Source: Bradymonadia bacterium (GTDB lineage Bacteria; Myxococcota_A; Bradymonadia; UBA7976; UBA1532). Taken from it: a stretch of DNA of 64,000 bases. Made by a program: the position numbers and the translations under genes. A model generated the notes under the pieces. It saw only the letters and a program-made list of their open reading frames with translations, ran no database searches and was not told the DNA's origin. The stretch covers positions 32,001-96,000 of the forward strand of contig JBKAGE010000037.1 of NCBI GenBank assembly GCA_046290225.1, given 5' to 3'. Position 1 is the first letter of the stretch. Each line of letters begins with the position of its first letter. Shown one piece after another: positions 41,014-49,141 of this stretch.

Positions 41014-41886
41014 ATGATCGACGCCACAGACATCTTGTACGGGGCCCTGCCAGCGGCCGCATTCGCCGGTGTGGTGGCCGTGGGGGTCACCGTCGCCATC
41101 GAGCGATTCGGCGGCCGGGTGGGCGGTTTGCTGGGCACGCTGCCCACCACGATCGTCCCCGCGAGCGTGGGCATCTTCAGCGAGGCCCAGAGCGCTGAGG
41201 CCTTCGTGAGGGCCATGGACGCGGTGCCTGCAGGTATGTGGCTCAACGCGATGTTCTTGTGGCTCTGGCGCGTGGTCCCCCAACGGCTGCCCGACGGTGC
41301 CCTGGGCACGCGCCTCGCCTGGATGTCGGCCATCTCCCTCGGCGCCTGGCTCACCGCTGCGGTGGCGCTGGTGTACGGCAGCGGCGCCCTCGTGGATGCC
41401 GGGATCGACACACTGTGGCTCAGTCTCGGTGGCTTCGGGTTGCTCGTCGGCGTGGGCCTGGCGGCCTGTCGCGGGCTCAAGCCCACCCCCAAGGGCAGCC
41501 GCCCGGTGCCCATCACCGCACTGATCCTGCGGGGGCTCTTCGCCGCCAGCAGCATTGGGGCCGCGGTCTGGGTGGCAGCAGTGGGGGGCGAGGTCGCCGC
41601 AGGGGTGGTCTCAGTGTTCCCCGCCATCTTCCTCACCACGATGGTGGCCCTGTGGCTGGCCCAGGGTGAGGCCGTTCCTGCTGGAGCCGTGGGCCCCATG
41701 ATGCTCGGCGCCTCAAGCGTCGCCGGGTTCGCCCTCTATGCGCGGTGGCTGATCCCCGAGCTGGGCCCCTGGGGCGGCACGCCCATCGCCTGGGTGCTCG
41801 CCGCCCTCACCACCACATTGCCCGCCAGCGCCTGGCTCGCTCGACAGGCCCGCCGCAGCCTCGACGCAGCCGAGGCTGTGCACTGA
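41014..41886 (+). CDS. Multi-pass membrane protein with two internal repeats
   Basis: About 9-10 hydrophobic helices; GG.VGGLLGTLP and GG.VAAGVVSVFP repeat halves. Confidence 0.7.
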   Translation: MIDATDILYGALPAAAFAGVVAVGVTVAIERFGGRVGGLLGTLPTTIVPASVGIFSEAQSAEAFVRAMDAVPAGMWLNAMFLWLWRVVPQRLPDGALGTRLAWMSAISLGAWLTAAVALVYGSGALVDAGIDTLWLSLGGFGLLVGVGLAACRGLKPTPKGSRPVPITALILRGLFAASSIGAAVWVAAVGGEVAAGVVSVFPAIFLTTMVALWLAQGEAVPAGAVGPMMLGASSVAGFALYARWLIPELGPWGGTPIAWVLAALTTTLPASAWLARQARRSLDAAEAVH

Positions 41887-43915: not shown

Positions 43916-44740
43916 ATGACCGTGACACAACGGCTGATCTCCCCACTTCTCCTCGGCGCACTCGCGCTTCTCCCTGCGTGCAAGGGCGACGCGCCCACGC
44001 CACCCGCTGGCGCTCAGAAGAGCGCCAAGGGTGCTCAGAAGGGCACCCCGGCGGTGCCCAACCTGGGCAAGCCCGGTGACGGCTTCGACCTGCCCAAGAT
44101 GCGGTCCAGCCTCGACGGCACCTGGATCATCAACCCCCAGTGGGGTCAGCGCATCGACGTGTGGCACCTCGACGGCAGCAAGGCGAAGCTGCTGCGTGGG
44201 GCTCTGGAGCGCGAGGTGGACGCGCTGGTCGACCTGCACGCCCCCTGTCGGATCCGCTTCACCACCAAGGGGGTCAAAGGCGGACCAGACTTCAGCTGGA
44301 CACGTAACTTCGTGCTCGAAGAGGGCAAATTGTTCGCAGGCCAGGCAGCTACGGGCTTGATCCAGGGCGATCGCACCATCGTCTGCGGGCGCCAGGGCAC
44401 CTTCATCAAGCAAGGCGATCAATGCGCCTATCACCCGATGCTCAAGCCCGGGGCCAAAAAGAACGCCAAGGTCCCTGCACCTGTGGCCGCGAAGTGCAGC
44501 CTCGAGGGTCAGTCCTTCGAGGCCCAGGCAGGCAAGGTGAAGGCGAAGCTCACCCGCCGCGGCGAGATCCTGGTGGCAGACGCGGTCCGACCTCTGGAGA
44601 AGATGCCGAGCTTCGAGGCTGCGAAGACGCGCTTCAGGCAAGCAAGCATGCGCCGACCCGGTGAAGCCCTGGAGCCGATCAAGGGCAGGGTGGAAGACAT
44701 GAAGCCGCCGACCCCCGCACCGAGCAGTCAACCGCAATGA
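43916..44740 (+). CDS. Hypothetical lipoprotein
   Basis: LPAC lipobox; Lys/Pro-rich linker. Confidence 0.65.
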   Translation: MTVTQRLISPLLLGALALLPACKGDAPTPPAGAQKSAKGAQKGTPAVPNLGKPGDGFDLPKMRSSLDGTWIINPQWGQRIDVWHLDGSKAKLLRGALEREVDALVDLHAPCRIRFTTKGVKGGPDFSWTRNFVLEEGKLFAGQAATGLIQGDRTIVCGRQGTFIKQGDQCAYHPMLKPGAKKNAKVPAPVAAKCSLEGQSFEAQAGKVKAKLTRRGEILVADAVRPLEKMPSFEAAKTRFRQASMRRPGEALEPIKGRVEDMKPPTPAPSSQPQ

Positions 44741-44892
44741 CGGCCATTCTTCGGGCCATCTGAGCACCCCCGATACATCGTCAGTTGCAGGTGCCCTTCC
44801 GCCGAATCGTCGGAGCACATCTAAAAAAGCTGACAGCGCCCTTCGTGTCCACTAGACACATACTATCGTTCACACACGAAGAGAGCATCCTC

Positions 44893-45249
44893 ATGCGCAT
44901 CCTCGTCGCTGGCGCTGTCGGTTGGACTGATCGCGAAGTCATTCATCGTGAGCTGAGTTGTTGCCCTGAGGCCACCCACATCATCACGGGTGATGCTCCG
45001 GGGGCTGACGCCCTCGCCGAAGAGGTGGGGCAAGGCCTCGGCTTCAGCGTGCAGCGGATGCACAAAAACAAGAAGGATTATGAGCGGTATGGCCGCGGCG
45101 CATGGAAAGGGCTCAATGAGCGCATGCTGGCTCAAGGGCCTGATCGAGTGCTCATTTTCCACCCGGCCATCGAGAAGAGCCGCGGCAGCAAGCACATGGG
45201 CAAGATCGCAGAAGCAGCGGGGGTAGAGGTGCAGGTGTTCAGCGGCTGA
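44893..45249 (+). CDS. SLOG-superfamily protein (YspA/DUF2493-like)
   Basis: MRILVAG, IITGDAPGADALA, YGRGA...NERML and SRGSKHM pattern. Confidence 0.75.
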   Translation: MRILVAGAVGWTDREVIHRELSCCPEATHIITGDAPGADALAEEVGQGLGFSVQRMHKNKKDYERYGRGAWKGLNERMLAQGPDRVLIFHPAIEKSRGSKHMGKIAEAAGVEVQVFSG

Positions 45250-45265
45250 TCACCTGCACCTCTAC
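45223..45265. terminator. Perfect 15-bp hairpin at the convergence of the SLOG gene and the tRNA array
   Basis: GTAGAGGTGCAGGTG (45223-45237) pairs with CACCTGCACCTCTAC (45251-45265); no U-tract. Confidence 0.55.
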
Positions 45266-45269
45266 GTCG

Positions 45270-45353
45270 TACCGGAGGTCGGAGTCGAACCGACAAGGCC
45301 ATCACAGCCAACCTGGTTTGAGCAGGCCGCGTTTACCATTTCGCCACTCCGGC
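45270..45353 (-). tRNA. tRNA-Leu(CAA), long variable arm
   Basis: GCCGGAG...GCCTG-CT-CAA-AC-CAGGT...GTCGG-TTCGACT-CCGAC-CTCCGGT-A; no encoded CCA. Confidence 0.9.
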
Positions 45354-45471
45354 AAAAGACACCTCGCCTCTCTGAGAGAGACGAGGCGCCCCGCCCCTGA
45401 TCGTGCACGCCATGGATGAGGCTCGAACTGACACAGCCAGATCGTGCTCTGCACTCGCCACGGCGCATATG

Positions 45472-45558
45472 CGGAAGAGGAGGGAGTCGAACCCCCAAGG
45501 CTTTTCACAGCTCGACCGGGTTCAAACCGGCTGCCGTCACCTGTCGGCTTGCTCTTCC
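45472..45558 (-). tRNA. tRNA-Ser(TGA), atypical D-arm
   Basis: GGAAGAG...GCCGG-TT-TGA-AC-CCGGT...GGGGG-TTCGACT-CCCTC-CTCTTCC-G. Confidence 0.88.
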
Positions 45559-45585
45559 AGTTGGGCTACGGTGCTCCGGCTTTTG

Positions 45586-45752
45586 GCTCCGGTGCTCCGG
45601 CCTCATCGCCCGCCATCAGGGCGGCGATCTGGCGCCCAGATGCGGCGCTCCGATCCTCGACGTAGCCTCTGGCTACGCCTGCGGTCGGAACACCACATCT
45701 GAACACCACCTCACCACCCTGCTGACGAGCGCTGCGACCTCCGCACCTCCGC
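45586..45752 (-). repeat. Long-hairpin repeat, copy A
   Basis: Minus strand: GCGGAGGTGCGGAGG...CAGATGTGGTG...CGCAGGCGTAGCCAGAGGCTACGTCGAG...GCCGGAGCACCGGAGC. Confidence 0.75.
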
Positions 45753-45832
45753 GTGCCCGGCCTGATGTTGGCTCCAGTTTTGTGTTGCTGGAGCCCACGT
45801 TAATCTGGGCCCGTGGACCCTTTGGCTTGTCG

Positions 45833-45917
45833 TGGATGGGGAGGGAATCGAACCCCCGGGGTGCGTACGCACGGCGGGACTACAAGCCGCCCCGGCCCCC
45901 TACCGGTCTACCCATCC
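45833..45917 (-). tRNA. tRNA-Tyr(GTA), degenerate (C31-C39 mismatch, G37); possibly a pseudo-tRNA
   Basis: GGATGGG...GCGGC-TT-GTA-GT-CCCGC-C-GTGCGTACGCAC...GGTTCGATTCC...CCCATCC-A. Confidence 0.7.
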
Positions 45918-46016
45918 AAAAATGTTCGCCCACAGGGGCTCGGCAGCTCGTCGATGGGTGAGCACCGCGCATGTGCACTCGATCACCAACCAGACGCTGA
46001 GCCCCTGGGCAAAATG

Positions 46017-46101
46017 TGGACAGGGAGGGAGTCGAACCCACGGGGTGCGTACGCACAGCGGATTTACAGTCCGCTCCGGCCCCCCACCGGACTACCTGTC
46101 C
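46017..46101 (-). tRNA. tRNA-Tyr(GTA), atypical D-arm
   Basis: GGACAGG...GCGGA-CT-GTA-AA-TCCGC-T-GTGCGTACGCAC...GGGTTCGACTCCC...CCTGTCC-A. Confidence 0.85.
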
Positions 46102-46153
46102 AAAAGGCGCTCATTCACAGGGGTCGAATGACCCCACTCGAACCCAAAGCACA

Positions 46154-46326
46154 TATGTACTTGCCCCGCGGAGGCTCTGGGGCTCGGTGGCTGGCCGGTG
46201 AGTGAGTGTGCAGTCGTGGTGGCAAAAGCGCAGGCGTGGCCGGAGGCCCCGTCGAGCATTTTGACGCCGCGAAAGTACGCTCAATCGCCGGCCAGACGCC
46301 GGGCCCCAGAGCCGGAGCGCCGGAGC
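46154..46326 (+). repeat. Long-hairpin repeat, copy B
   Basis: TATGTACTTGCCCCGCGGAGG...AAAGCGCAGGCG...CGTCGAGCATTT...GCCGGAGCGCCGGAG; folds by eye into a ~140-nt hairpin with many G-T pairs on the plus strand. Confidence 0.78.
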
Positions 46327-46334
46327 AAAAAGTG

Positions 46335-46422
46335 CGGAGGCGGAGGGATTCGAACCCCCACGACCCTTGCGGGCCCTACCAAGGTAGCAACCTGGCCTCT
46401 TCACCAATTTGAGTACGCCTCC
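46335..46422 (-). tRNA. tRNA-Ser(GCT)
   Basis: GGAGGCG...CCAGG-TT-GCT-AC-CTTGG...GGGGG-TTCGAAT-CCCTC-CGCCTCC-G. Confidence 0.9.
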
Positions 46423-46449
46423 ACACAAGGCTGAGCTGTCACGCATCAG

Positions 46450-46534
46450 TGCCGCGAGCCGGATTCGAACCGGCACGACCAAAGGCGGTCCCCGGGCTCT
46501 CAACCCGGTGTGTCTTCCGTTCCACCACCACGGC
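46450..46534 (-). tRNA. tRNA-Leu(GAG)
   Basis: GCCGTGG...CCGGG-TT-GAG-AG-CCCGG...GCCGG-TTCGAAT-CCGGC-TCGCGGC-A. Confidence 0.9.
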
Positions 46535-46543
46535 AAAAATCAG

Positions 46544-46630
46544 CGGAAGAGGAGGGAGTCGAACCCCCAAGGCCCTTTCGAGCTCACCCGTATTCGAAAC
46601 GGGCGCCATCACCCATTGGCTTGCTCTTCC
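46544..46630 (-). tRNA. tRNA-Ser(CGA), atypical D-arm
   Basis: GGAAGAG...CCCGT-TT-CGA-AT-ACGGG...GGGGG-TTCGACT-CCCTC-CTCTTCC-G. Confidence 0.88.
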
Positions 46631-46663
46631 GTATGGCTCCAGAGCTTCAGCCATGGAGCACTG

Positions 46664-46748
46664 TGGACAAGGAGAGAGTCGAACTCCCGAGGTGCGTACG
46701 CACGACGCGTTTACAGCGCGCTCCGGTCCCCTACCGGCCTACCTGTCC
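46664..46748 (-). tRNA. tRNA-Tyr(GTA), atypical D-arm
   Basis: GGACAGG...GCGCG-CT-GTA-AA-CGCGT-C-GTGCGTACGCAC...GGGAG-TTCGACT-CTCTC-CTTGTCC-A. Confidence 0.85.
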
Positions 46749-46756
46749 TCAAAATG

Positions 46757-46845
46757 CGGAAGCGGCGGGAGTCGAACCCGCAGTGCCTTTCACGGCACAC
46801 CTGTTTTCCGGACAGGCGCGGCGAACCGATATCCGCCTCGCTTCC
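46757..46845 (-). tRNA. tRNA-Ser(GGA), atypical (A8, C33)
   Basis: GGAAGCG...CCTGT-CC-GGA-AA-ACAGG...GCGGG-TTCGACT-CCCGC-CGCTTCC-G. Confidence 0.85.
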
Positions 46846-46983
46846 AAACATCACACACATGTATCCCACCAGCATGCCGACGCAATACAACCATCTCATC
46901 AACACGCAACATGAAGACGCGATACACACGTGTATCAAACGGCACGCACCTACCATCGCCGCCAGAGATCAGAAGTCAGGAAG

Positions 46984-47067
46984 TGCCCGGGGTGAGATTC
47001 GAACTCACACGTCCTCACGGACACCGGCTTCTGAGGCCGGCGCGTCTACCAGTTCCGCCACCCGGGC
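46984..47067 (-). tRNA. tRNA-Leu(CAG)
   Basis: GCCCGGGTGGCGGAACTGGTAGACGCG-CCGGC-CT-CAG-AA-GCCGG...GTGAG-TTCGAAT-CTCAC-CCCGGGC-A. Confidence 0.93.
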
Positions 47068-47174
47068 ATATGGATCCCCAGCGACGATGGCAGGCACGGC
47101 ACATCGTGAGCACACACCCACAATGCTTTTATTTTCTAAGGCTTATGTGCCCTCACGAGCATCAACCGAGGCAC

Positions 47175-47209
47175 AAAAAAAGCCCCTCGGCAGATGCCTG
47201 AGGGGCTTT
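47175..47209 (-). terminator. Intrinsic terminator (attenuator) between the leader peptide and the tRNA array
   Basis: Minus strand AAAGCCCCTC-AGGCATCTGCC-GAGGGGC-TTTTTTT: GC-rich stem followed by 7 U. Confidence 0.9.
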
Positions 47210-47229
47210 CGTGCGAAGACCGGCAGGCC

Positions 47230-47337
47230 TCAGCTCGAACTCCCCTCGAGGGCACTCAGAAGCAACGACGCGCAATAAGACAGGCGCAAGTCGAGGCTTG
47301 AGAGGCGAGAGTTGGAGGTGTTCGAGATGAAGTGCAT
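47230..47337 (-). CDS. Putative attenuator leader peptide MHFISNTSNSRLSSLDLRLSYCASLLLSALEGSSS (35 aa; 11 Ser, 8 Leu, 1 Tyr)
   Basis: AAGGGA Shine-Dalgarno (47346-47351) 8 nt before the ATG; the stop lies ~20 nt before the terminator; too short for the ORF track. Confidence 0.82.
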   Translation of the reverse strand: MHFISNTSNSRLSSLDLRLSYCASLLLSALEGSSS

Positions 47338-47365
47338 GAGAACTATCCCTTGTTGAGTGACTCGA

Positions 47366-47394
47366 AAGGTAGCGGCATAGTCTGACTGTGTCAA
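47366..47394 (-). promoter_or_regulatory. Sigma70-type promoter of the leader-tRNA transcript
   Basis: Minus strand TTGACA (47394-47389), 17-nt spacer, TACCTT (47371-47366); AT-rich upstream segment. Confidence 0.82.
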
Positions 47395-47477
47395 AGACAT
47401 TTTTCACATGACAGTCATTTTTCTATTTCGGCCCACTCTGAGCACACCGACAGTCAGCCACTCGGGCTGTAGTATCC

Positions 47478-47996
47478 TCAGGGGACCCATATCTCCTCCC
47501 GGATCGCCCAGCGCTCGTGATCACGCCATGCACCATCCAAAAAGAGGTAGCTCTTGGAGTAGCCCTCACGCTCGAAGCCCACCCGCTTCACGAGCTGAAT
47601 CGATCGCATGTTCTCGGGCCGGATGTTGGCCTCAAGACGGTGCAAGCCGATGCGAGAAAACGCCCACTCCAGACAGCTGTGCATCCCCTCCTCCATCTTC
47701 CCTGAACCCGCATGGGGCAAGAAGGCGCCGTAACCCATGTACGCGCTGCGGAACAGGCCCATGGAGATCTGGCTGAGGTTGAACACCCCCGCGGGCTCCC
47801 CTGAGGCCTGATCGATCAACACAAGAGTGCGAAAGGCATCGCTCTGCCGATCGATGAGCAGCTGGAACGCCTCTACCGTACGCGCCGTAGAAAACCAGGG
47901 CCCGTGCAGGGAGACACTGGCCTGCGCCGCCGCGATGAACGCCATCTCGTCTTCAGGCACCAATGGTCGGAGTAGAGTTCTTGCGCTCGAGATCAA
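47478..47996 (-). CDS. RimJ/RimL-family GNAT acetyltransferase (second copy)
   Basis: GAGGAGG SD then TTG start; SAYMGY, LHRLEANIRPEN.RS, GFEREG.S..YL.LDG.WRDHERWA. Confidence 0.88.
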   Translation of the reverse strand: MISSARTLLRPLVPEDEMAFIAAAQASVSLHGPWFSTARTVEAFQLLIDRQSDAFRTLVLIDQASGEPAGVFNLSQISMGLFRSAYMGYGAFLPHAGSGKMEEGMHSCLEWAFSRIGLHRLEANIRPENMRSIQLVKRVGFEREGYSKSYLFLDGAWRDHERWAIREEIWVP

Positions 47997-48118
47997 ATCT
48001 GCACCTCCTCGTGCGGTGTTCGCGACATATTCTATGCGCAATTGCGATGTCCTCCCCTTGCTCTTGATGCACGCCTGAGGCACAACCGTTCTCTTGAACA
48101 TCGCCCCCAGGAGCCCCC

Positions 48119-49141
48119 ATGAACGCCCCCGAGATTCGACATGACTGGACCCGTGGCGAGATCAGGGCCCTCTTCGATCTGCCCTTCAACGATCTGCTCT
48201 TTCGGGCTCAGAGCGCCCACCGGCGCCACTTCGATCCCAACCGGGTACAGCTGAGCACCCTGCTCAGCATCAAGACCGGCTCTTGCCCCGAAGACTGCGC
48301 CTACTGCCCTCAGAGCGCGCGGTACGACACCGGCCTCGAGTCCGAGCGGCTGATGCCTCTCGAAGAGGTGCTCCAGCGGGCCCAGGCGGCCAAGGATGCA
48401 GGGGCCACGCGGTTCTGCATGGGGGCCGCCTGGCGCAACCCCAAGGATCGAGACCTCGACAAGGTCTGCGACATGGTCGTCGGTGTGCGTAAGCTCGGGC
48501 TCGAGACCTGCGTCACTCTGGGCATGCTCAAAGAGACACAGGCGAGACGCCTCAAAGAGGCAGGCCTGGACTACTACAACCACAACATCGACACCGATCC
48601 CGAGATGTACGGTGACATCATCACCACCCGCACCTTTCAGGATCGACTCGACACCCTTGAGCACGTGCGCGAAGCGGGCATGAAGGTGTGTTGCGGCGGC
48701 ATCGTGGGTATGGGCGAGAGCCGCGATCAGCGCGCGGGCATGCTGCTCACCCTGGCCAACATGCCCAGCCACCCCGAGAGCGTGCCCATCAACATGCTGG
48801 TTCAGGTCGAGGGCACTCCGCTGCACGGATCCGACAGCCTCGATCCACTGGAGTTCATCCGCACCATCGCCGTGGCGCGTATCCTGATGCCTCGATCGAG
48901 GGTCCGGCTCTCCGCTGGCCGTCGCCAGATGGACGACAGCACTCAGGCCTTGTGCTTCTTCGCCGGCGCAAACTCCATCTTCTATGGCGATCAGCTGCTC
49001 ACCACGGGCAACCCCGACGTGATCCGTGATCAGACCCTCCTCACCCGCCTGGGCATCGAAGCCGACGGCATGCCCACCGATGATGTAGAGCCGCCCACCT
49101 CAGTACACCCCGGCCACTGCCCCATCGAGGACCTGCCTTGA
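48119..49141 (+). CDS. bioB: Biotin synthase
   Basis: Radical SAM motif [28 protein letters not shown] and RLSAGR. Confidence 0.97.

Follow-up and report, generated by a model that had tools for sequence, protein, structure and literature searches.

Within a 64,000-nucleotide (nt) stretch of contig JBKAGE010000037.1 from a Bradymonadia bacterium, we studied a unit of tRNA genes for serine, leucine and tyrosine that lies entirely on the minus strand and consists of a promoter, a Shine-Dalgarno (SD) sequence, a short leader open reading frame (ORF), a terminator hairpin and the tRNA genes themselves. The contig is labelled C37, the whole stretch is called the window, and coordinates given without a contig label are window coordinates. 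Comparison of this unit with its counterparts makes it quite probable that they are controlled by ribosome-mediated attenuation, in an autoregulatory loop that would sense decoding speed, and that their arrays, sorted by amino-acid group, hold a diverged second set of tRNAs. The strongest argument is that the leader tracks its array, among the paralogous units of this genome as well as between two genomes, which argues that leader and array are functionally coupled. A leader-peptide attenuator architecture had been proposed in a sequence-only reading of the window; with four paralogous units whose leaders match their arrays, and with leader and array co-varying in a second genome (G023), that proposal is now well supported as far as sequence comparison goes.

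The promoter, the SD sequence, the 35-codon ORF, the G+C-rich hairpin with its seven T and the ten tRNA genes named in that reading were all found as claimed by inspection of the sequence, ARAGORN, Rfam and folding. The elements that precede the tRNA genes are the following:

47395..47428, minus strand: A/T-rich stretch immediately 5' of the -35 box, resembling an UP element (read from the sequence; putative UP function)
47366..47394, minus strand: sigma-70-type promoter, with the -35 box at 47394-47389, a 17-nt spacer and the -10 box at 47371-47366 (read from the sequence)
47346..47351, minus strand: SD-like purine stretch, 8 nt 5' of the ATG (read from the sequence)
47230..47337, minus strand: leader ORF of 35 codons plus stop, with 11 Ser, 8 Leu and 1 Tyr codons (ORF list)
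47309..47325, minus strand: segment 1, about codons 5-10 of the leader, pairing with segment 2 in the full-length minimum-energy fold
47236..47252, minus strand: segment 2, G-rich, codons 29-34, candidate 5' strand of an antiterminator (predicted pairing)
47175..47207, minus strand: intrinsic terminator, a G+C-rich hairpin of 8+3 base pairs (bp) with its stem at 47207-47181 and seven T at 47181-47175 (sequence and fold)

The SD-like stretch precedes the start of the leader ORF by 8 nt, and another 29 nt separate it from the promoter upstream. The -10 box has three of the six consensus bases. The terminator hairpin, which has an inner bulge, folds with about -23.5 kcal/mol, and the first tRNA gene begins 107 nt past its T run. 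Similar A/T runs precede the -35 box in all eight units examined (see below), and the same type of -35 box, a spacing of 16-17 nt and a -10 box starting with TA are present in the seven others. Downstream of the window leader there are ten tRNA genes and no protein gene; these genes, in the order in which they would be transcribed, and the hairpin behind them are:

46983..47067, minus strand: tRNA-Leu(CAG), first of the array (ARAGORN and Rfam)
46756..46845, minus strand: tRNA-Ser(GGA) (ARAGORN and Rfam)
46663..46748, minus strand: tRNA-Tyr(GTA), copy 1 (ARAGORN and Rfam)
46543..46630, minus strand: tRNA-Ser(CGA) (ARAGORN and Rfam)
46449..46534, minus strand: tRNA-Leu(GAG) (ARAGORN and Rfam)
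46334..46422, minus strand: tRNA-Ser(GCT) (ARAGORN and Rfam)
46016..46101, minus strand: tRNA-Tyr(GTA), copy 2 (ARAGORN and Rfam)
45832..45917, minus strand: Tyr-like tRNA, called Thr-TGT by ARAGORN, anticodon read as GTA (ARAGORN, Rfam and reading of the sequence)
45471..45558, minus strand: tRNA-Ser(TGA) (ARAGORN and Rfam)
45269..45353, minus strand: tRNA-Leu(CAA), last of the array (ARAGORN and Rfam)
45223..45265, minus strand: perfect 15-bp hairpin right after the last tRNA gene, overlapping the 3' end of a convergent gene (read from the sequence; no T run)

ARAGORN placed the ten genes at 45269-47067 on the minus strand, and Rfam gave matches at all ten places: six to the tRNA model above its cut-off, and the remaining four best to the long-arm tRNA-Sec model, below the cut-off of that model. 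The eighth gene, the one called Thr-TGT, is 86 nt long and aligns with both Tyr genes, and a reading with a 7-nt loop gives it the anticodon GTA. Its anticodon loop is unusual, a C-C mismatch closes the anticodon stem, and its Rfam score of 29.4 bits is the lowest among the ten; the gene may be in decay, or its product may decode differently. Once it is taken as a third Tyr-like tRNA, the earlier description of the array as one of Ser, Leu and Tyr tRNAs only stands. The 15-bp hairpin after the last gene likely marks the end of the transcription unit. Inverted-repeat elements similar to miniature inverted-repeat transposable elements (MITEs) were seen in spacers of the array, at 46110-46330 and 45925-46010; MITE-like inverted repeats also occur after the terminator of the unit on contig C20, at the ends of contigs C20 and C24, and at about 960-1290 of locus L030 in G023.

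Serine, leucine and tyrosine codons account for 20 of the 34 codons that follow the start of the window leader, and all 20 are readable by anticodons of the array under simple wobble. A share as high is reached by 4 of the 57,716 short ORFs of the genome, the leader itself counted. The sequence-only reading had relied both on this richness and on a finer agreement, namely that the leader uses all six Ser codons and lacks CTA and TTA, for which the array has no tRNA. The richness goes beyond chance and the finer agreement does not: under genomic codon usage, all six Ser codons are expected within 11 draws with P = 0.12, and an absence of CTA and TTA among eight Leu draws with P = 0.91.

The genome holds five leader-headed units: that of the window and those on contigs C20, C42, C79 and C77. 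The size of the array varies from 1 to 11 genes across these five chromosomal units, and the array on C20 probably extends onto C24, where two further Arg genes lie; the ends of these contigs carry the two arms of one inverted repeat. The other units share the build of the window unit, i.e., an A/T-rich stretch, -35 and -10 boxes with a 16-17-nt spacer, an SD sequence, a short ORF, a hairpin with a T run and tRNA genes. Arrays and leaders compare as follows:

C37 (window): Ser, Leu and Tyr tRNAs; cognate share of the leader, 59%
C20: Val, Arg, Lys and Ile tRNAs; cognate share of the leader, 59%
C42: Gln, Glu, Asp and Phe tRNAs; cognate share of the leader, 55%
C79: Thr, Gly and Ala tRNAs; cognate share of the leader, 41%
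C77: a single, weakly scoring Trp tRNA; leader with two adjacent Trp codons

When each leader of the four large units was compared with each array, the values on the diagonal of the matrix were 0.59, 0.59, 0.55 and 0.41, against at most 0.19 off the diagonal. The cognate share was reached by 2 null short ORFs for C20, 1 for C42 and 1,624 for C79, each out of 57,716. None of the other tRNA clusters of the genome has such a leader, barring one ORF located 5' of the housekeeping Pro/Arg/His/Lys/Leu cluster with a cognate share of 0.54, which we rejected as a composition artefact: it runs through a protein gene in an alternative frame, and no terminator follows it.

Over the G-rich end of the ORF, a small hairpin after the stop codon and the terminator, the C20, C42, C79 and C77 cores can be aligned well with each other, the G runs standing in different registers, and the context of the SD sequence is shared as well. 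In the consensus structure, 8 of the 23 pairs show compensatory changes. The window unit is similar to the C77 type. Searching the genome with an nhmmer profile built from the conserved core returned exactly the five unit places and no sixth one. No integrase, phage or plasmid genes were found within about 5 kb of any of the units, which are flanked by ordinary chromosomal genes (biotin synthase, aminotransferase, GNAT, lyase, peptidase and transporter).

ARAGORN found 96 tRNA genes genome-wide, 35 of them in the arrays on C20, C24, C37, C42 and C79. The array tRNAs are 47-84% identical to the genes with the same anticodon elsewhere in the genome. Those of the window had been described as a back-up, a description that agrees with the finding that each of their anticodons is also present outside the array, in copies only 47-81% identical. 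Just two anticodons are confined to arrays, Arg-GCG and Ile-GAT. The latter usually sits in rRNA operons, and these are missing from this draft assembly. Rfam tRNA matches number 89 in this genome as compared with 20-57 in 27 other genomes of the family. The best explanation, on the sequences compared, is that the arrays form a diverged extra set of tRNAs split by amino-acid group. The restriction of tRNA-Arg(GCG) to arrays was observed in both genomes (C20:480-555 here and L030:874-949 in G023); in bacteria, a tRNA with the anticodon ACG (inosine) normally decodes CGU and CGC.

A covariance model of the unit core was run over 113 genomes of the class. Outside this genome it gave one match directly 5' of a tRNA array, with 44.9 bits, in G023, a member of a different genus of the same family that has the second-highest tRNA count (57). 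The unit on contig C80 of G023 has the same type of promoter and a 32-codon leader orthologous to that of C42: 79 of 99 nt are identical, and length, start and stop are kept. Six of the 13 amino-acid differences between the two leaders are changes to Arg, for which the chance of at least six in 13 is P = 0.0003-0.01 at Arg frequencies of 8-16%. The C80 array has Arg-GCG and Arg-CCG, both lacking in the C42 array; it is without Gln-CTG, and three CAG codons of the C42 leader are among those replaced. The combined share of Asp, Glu, Phe, Gln and Arg in the C80 leader is 68%, a value reached by 4 of 69,864 null ORFs. The first tRNA of the array (Asp) is 91% identical between C80 and C42 and at most 66% identical to any tRNA outside the arrays, and the differences between the two terminator stems, when read in the sequences, are paired changes that preserve the helix. 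A second unit of G023, on contig C39, contains four tRNA-Leu genes only, behind a terminator similar to the C77 and window type. Its leader has seven Leu in eight consecutive codons, a run matched by 1 of 69,864 null ORFs, and shows no bias to Ser or Tyr. The sequence-only reading had asked whether related genomes conserve a leader and terminator before arrays restricted to class II (long-variable-arm) tRNAs. Leader and terminator are kept in G023, where the leader co-varies with the array; the grouping of Ser, Leu and Tyr is not, the related unit there being one of Leu alone.

Beyond these two genomes the searches gave no further unit. Of the seven other weak matches that the covariance model gave in the class, none is a leader: one overlaps a single tRNA-Leu gene, and the other six lie away from any tRNA gene. 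When 151 genomes sampled from the phylum were searched with the model, no additional unit came up. The leader DNA had no match in 40 relatives, in which only single housekeeping tRNA-Leu genes were matched. Scans of genome, metagenome and viral contig collections for exact patterns, one from the three Tyr-like tRNA genes and one from the leader as conserved with G023, returned only the contig of G023 itself. In phage records, blastn of the whole window unit gave matches to single tRNAs only, each covering at most 4% of the query. Three metagenome DNA runs share 5-7% of the sequence words of the window stretch, and no RNA data set is listed as containing it.

The arrays of the two genomes show some further peculiarities. 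Two tRNA-Asp genes of the C42 array (92569-92641 and 93429-93501) and one of G023 (L030:1308-1381) were called by ARAGORN and are missed or barely scored by the Rfam tRNA model; this array tRNA-Asp is atypical yet conserved, as seen from the first gene of the C42 array. An insert of about 200 nt in L030 of G023 appears, on reading the sequence, to split a tRNA-Glu(CTC) in its D-arm, a gene that Rfam did not detect.

Structural modelling lends moderate support to attenuation. In all eight units, the best upstream partner predicted for the C-rich 5' arm of the terminator was a G-rich stretch in the last codons of the ORF, ending between 14 nt before the stop codon and 4 nt past the first base of the stop. 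For the window terminator, once its 3' arm was left out, the best partner of the 5' arm was segment 2, with -19.5 kcal/mol. Hairpins defined by folding begin 18-30 nt after the stop codon, so a ribosome at the stop would cover the antiterminator strand and not the terminator, an arrangement known from the trp and his leaders; an automatic definition of hairpins put the start of the terminator 0-4 nt past the stop in two units, that of the window included. Comparable hairpins are present in all eight units, with T runs short or missing in some. The full-length fold of the window leader pairs the G-rich stretch with codons 5-10, which gives the classical layout of alternative pairings 1:2, 2:3 and 3:4. 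An equilibrium model with a ribosome footprint of 30 nt gave these probabilities of the window terminator:

No ribosome: 0.97
Ribosome at codons 5-17: 0.32
Ribosome at the stop codon: 1.00

The probability of the terminator falls when segment 1 is masked by the modelled ribosome, and none of 70 shuffles of codon order produced a switch as large as that of the window unit.

We infer that the leader is translated and that a switch operates through it, in the following way. The array would be transcribed from a strong promoter of the stable-RNA type, through the leader-peptide attenuator, whose leader consists mostly of Ser, Leu and Tyr codons, the codons decoded by the ten downstream tRNAs. When translation is fast, the ribosome at the stop codon would cover the G-rich stretch, the arms of the terminator would pair, and transcription would end about 107 nt before the first tRNA gene. 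If the ribosome lags on the early cognate codons, the G-rich stretch would be freed from its upstream partner and could pair with the 5' arm of the terminator, forming an antiterminator that lets RNA polymerase enter the array. The tRNAs of the array would then quicken decoding of the same codons and thereby close a negative feedback. The signal, we infer, would be a shortage of usable (intact, charged) tRNA of the group and not the class II shape. A lagging ribosome signals that usable aminoacyl-tRNA is missing, and what the loop delivers is tRNA; it would therefore be corrective only if tRNA falls short in amount, integrity or modification. A shortage in tRNA itself is therefore the likely physiological signal, with amino-acid starvation and translation stress as unavoidable side inputs. 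A tRNA-cleaving toxin as the trigger would be in keeping with how strongly the spare set has diverged. In an extension of this idea, which we regard as rather unlikely, the five units would make up a modular immune or repair reserve of tRNA, kept silent by their own leaders, each module being induced by cleavage or inactivation of housekeeping tRNA and supplying copies divergent enough (47-84% identity) to escape the enzyme. Attackers in that case might be anticodon nucleases of rival bacteria, toxin-antitoxin systems or a defence triggered by phage.

Several observations weigh against attenuation as described above. Neither the promoter nor the terminator of the window unit came up in a simple consensus scan, and spacers of 118-274 nt within the array leave room for internal promoters. 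The energies of the antiterminator duplexes are not clearly better than those obtained with shuffled upstream sequence: among 200 shuffles for each of the eight units, 133, 130, 43, 18, 15, 9, 11 and 121 reached the observed value, in a test where the terminator arm was set automatically and was too long in two units. Real attenuators act kinetically; in the equilibrium masking model the three-state switch appeared in only 5 of the 8 units, the positions to which the model was sensitive are only partly cognate codons, and the masking profile of the window shifts with the 5' boundary chosen. As to composition, the codon-by-codon match of the window leader was rejected as evidence, being within chance (see above), the enrichment of the Thr/Gly/Ala leader (C79) is weak taken alone (P = 0.028), and so is the leader of C77, since adjacent Trp codons are seen in 3.8% of null ORFs. 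The terminator of the C80 ortholog in G023 has nearly no T run. A third candidate of G023 (L045, with three tRNA-Pro genes) was too weak to count, with 4 Pro in 28 codons, and homologous units were found in only two genomes, both of them draft assemblies. There is also a gap in the logic of the loop, as stalling caused by amino-acid starvation would not be relieved by more tRNA. Between the leader-like ORF with its terminator and the tRNA-Pro genes of L045 (about 1650-1830) we observed around a dozen copies of a 13-nt tandem repeat.

Taken at their strongest, these points would mean that there is no regulatory coupling at all: the ORF would be untranslated, the hairpin a leaky or decorative terminator or a processing site, the tRNAs constitutive and the match between leader and array a matter of shared ancestry. 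The silent consensus scans and the unremarkable antiterminator energies speak for such an account, as does the homology of the units, whose observations are not fully independent. Shared ancestry, however, would make the leaders alike and not let them differ exactly as the arrays differ; between genera, start, stop and length were kept at 80% nucleotide identity while six codons turned to Arg alongside the array; and the enrichment is of the order of 1 in 10,000 or rarer for four leaders, all of which leaves an uncoupled unit distinctly improbable. The sequence-only reading had gone in another direction, proposing a unit that responds when class II tRNAs, taken as a structural class, are lost or damaged, e.g., by a shape-recognising nuclease, and that replaces them. 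Such a design would account for ten genes that are all class II and for a leader mixing exactly their three amino acids, which have no biosynthetic pathway in common, and copies 47-81% identical to their counterparts are what would be expected for escape from a sequence-specific enzyme. Shape as the organising principle was nevertheless not borne out, and we consider it very improbable: four of the five units serve class I tRNAs with the same build, from which it follows that the system is not about class II shape; the related C39 unit of G023 is one of Leu alone, with a leader that has a Leu run and no Ser or Tyr enrichment; and local duplication of similar tRNAs would yield the same grouping with no need of shape.

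Two other explanations keep the attenuator and change what it reports. The same hardware could respond to amino-acid supply through uncharged tRNA, the extra tRNA serving for buffering or signalling in starvation. A ribosome cannot distinguish a missing tRNA from an uncharged one, so the leader must also answer starvation, and leaders with several amino acids are known for the ilv and thr operons. Yet more tRNA is no relief of an amino-acid shortage, which makes the matching of leader and array hard to explain by selection; the gain of Arg in both leader and array of G023 ties the leader to tRNA content and not to a pathway; and the amino acids grouped together have no common biosynthetic route. 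Amino-acid supply as the signal is accordingly judged improbable. A general sensor of translation stress, in which any slowing of ribosomes (antibiotics, cold, ribosome damage) would induce the spare tRNAs and the amino-acid bias would be secondary, finds precedent in the leader-ORF attenuators that sense antibiotics, which are common; with one design in all units, a global slow-down would open all of them; and the trn operon of Anabaena is described, in the accessible text of PMC8421152 and PMC10272220, as silent and induced when translation is impaired. It has, however, no need of five compositions that track their arrays, nor of the co-variation in G023, and seems to us hardly probable at all.

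Leader-peptide attenuators are known for the trp, his, leu and pheA operons, and multivalent ones for thr and ilv. The units described here have several features in common with them: a promoter-proximal short ORF with an SD sequence, cognate codons, an intrinsic terminator before the first gene, a candidate antiterminator overlapping the end of the ORF, and several amino acids per leader as in ilv and thr. They differ in what is controlled. Attenuators of amino-acid operons govern biosynthetic, transport or synthetase genes, whereas here the genes are those of tRNAs, outside the range described for the family; the product would act directly on the decoding of the leader, in a direct autoregulatory loop; and a complete second set of tRNAs is divided among five units according to amino-acid group. 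A general model of such attenuators is given in PMC1183508, as far as its accessible text goes.

The trn operon of Anabaena sp. PCC 7120 is, according to the accessible portions of its two reports, an operon of 26 genes on a megaplasmid, controlled by the TrcR repressor bound to direct repeats over the -10 box and the start site (PMC8421152; PMC10272220). As the arrays studied here would do, this long array (L-array) provides a conditional, redundant second set of tRNAs beside the housekeeping copies; as described there, it is one operon whose initiation is controlled by TrcR, whereas here a leader ORF and a terminator precede each of five chromosomal units. PMC8421152 does not contain 'leader', 'attenuat' or 'terminator' even once. 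In the accessible text of PMC4758250, tRNA array units are defined by at least 20 genes and at least 2 genes per kb, and there and in PMC5966550 they are treated for their distribution and mobility rather than for attenuation. The arrays of this genome are likewise dense clusters redundant with dispersed copies; compared with the array units of those texts they are smaller, sorted by amino acid and placed among ordinary chromosomal genes. The window array, with 10 genes in 1.8 kb, has the density of at least 2 genes per kb and not the 20 genes. L-arrays run up to 43 genes, and the window array is shorter.

T-box riboswitches recognise tRNA by direct binding, with no translation involved, and their targets are synthetase and amino-acid genes. 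As is proposed for the units described here, they place in the 5' leader a terminator and an antiterminator that report the state of a specific tRNA. Scanning 44500-48200 with the Rfam models (cmscan, E up to 1) revealed no T-box or other cis-regulatory family on the leader, the only matches being those of the tRNA clan plus weak chance matches to small RNA (sRNA) and plastid untranslated region (UTR) families. In the literature searched, which did not cover subscription journals, no leader-peptide control of tRNA genes was found.

Other tRNA genes of this genome also showed unusual features. Three tandem tRNA-like genes of 107-116 nt lie on C34 at about 374632-375090 (L050, 833-1288, plus strand), with Rfam tRNA scores of 47-52 bits; each carries an insert of 35-42 nt in the anticodon loop, and the inserts share a conserved core. 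ARAGORN missed the three genes with default settings and, with its intron option, read two of them as Pro(TGG) with the intron at a non-canonical position; short inserts of this type are atypical for bacterial tRNA introns. The trio sits just 5' of normal Pro(TGG) and Pro(CGG) genes. This Pro cluster (C34 about 374560-374590, L050) and an Asn/His pair (C44 about 41090-41130, L051) have no leader ORFs and share an upstream motif that reads like a sigma-54-type -24/-12 promoter; some of the duplicated tRNA genes may thus be controlled in another way, one that depends on an activator. A G+C-rich repeated element of about 100 nt follows several tRNA-Pro genes (C34:375230-375440 and 375660 onward; C42:39800 onward). 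ARAGORN also reported a tRNA with the anticodon CTA, labelled Pyl and amber-reading, at C14:27995-28067, and a tRNA-Sec at C75:162683-162772.

The tRNA genes of bacteria are a textbook case of growth-rate and stringent control exerted at the promoter, and leader-peptide attenuation has been known for 45 years as a sensor of amino acids. A gene-specific feedback that measures the decoding speed of given codons and answers with the tRNAs for them is not described in the literature searched. Since leader and array co-evolved between two genomes, the question is directly testable with simple reporter constructs. If the proposed loop is real, it would be a natural and portable reporter of decoding speed for chosen codons, of use in work on tRNA-targeting toxins, tRNA genes of phages and adaptation of codon usage. 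Should the units in addition form an immune or repair reserve, the integrity of tRNA would be sensed through translation of a codon-matched test ORF, a way that is not known to have been described. The loop by itself, if real, would mean that leader-peptide attenuation also serves as a sensor of tRNA supply, and it would account for the carriage of redundant tRNA arrays with no disturbance of the tRNA pool.

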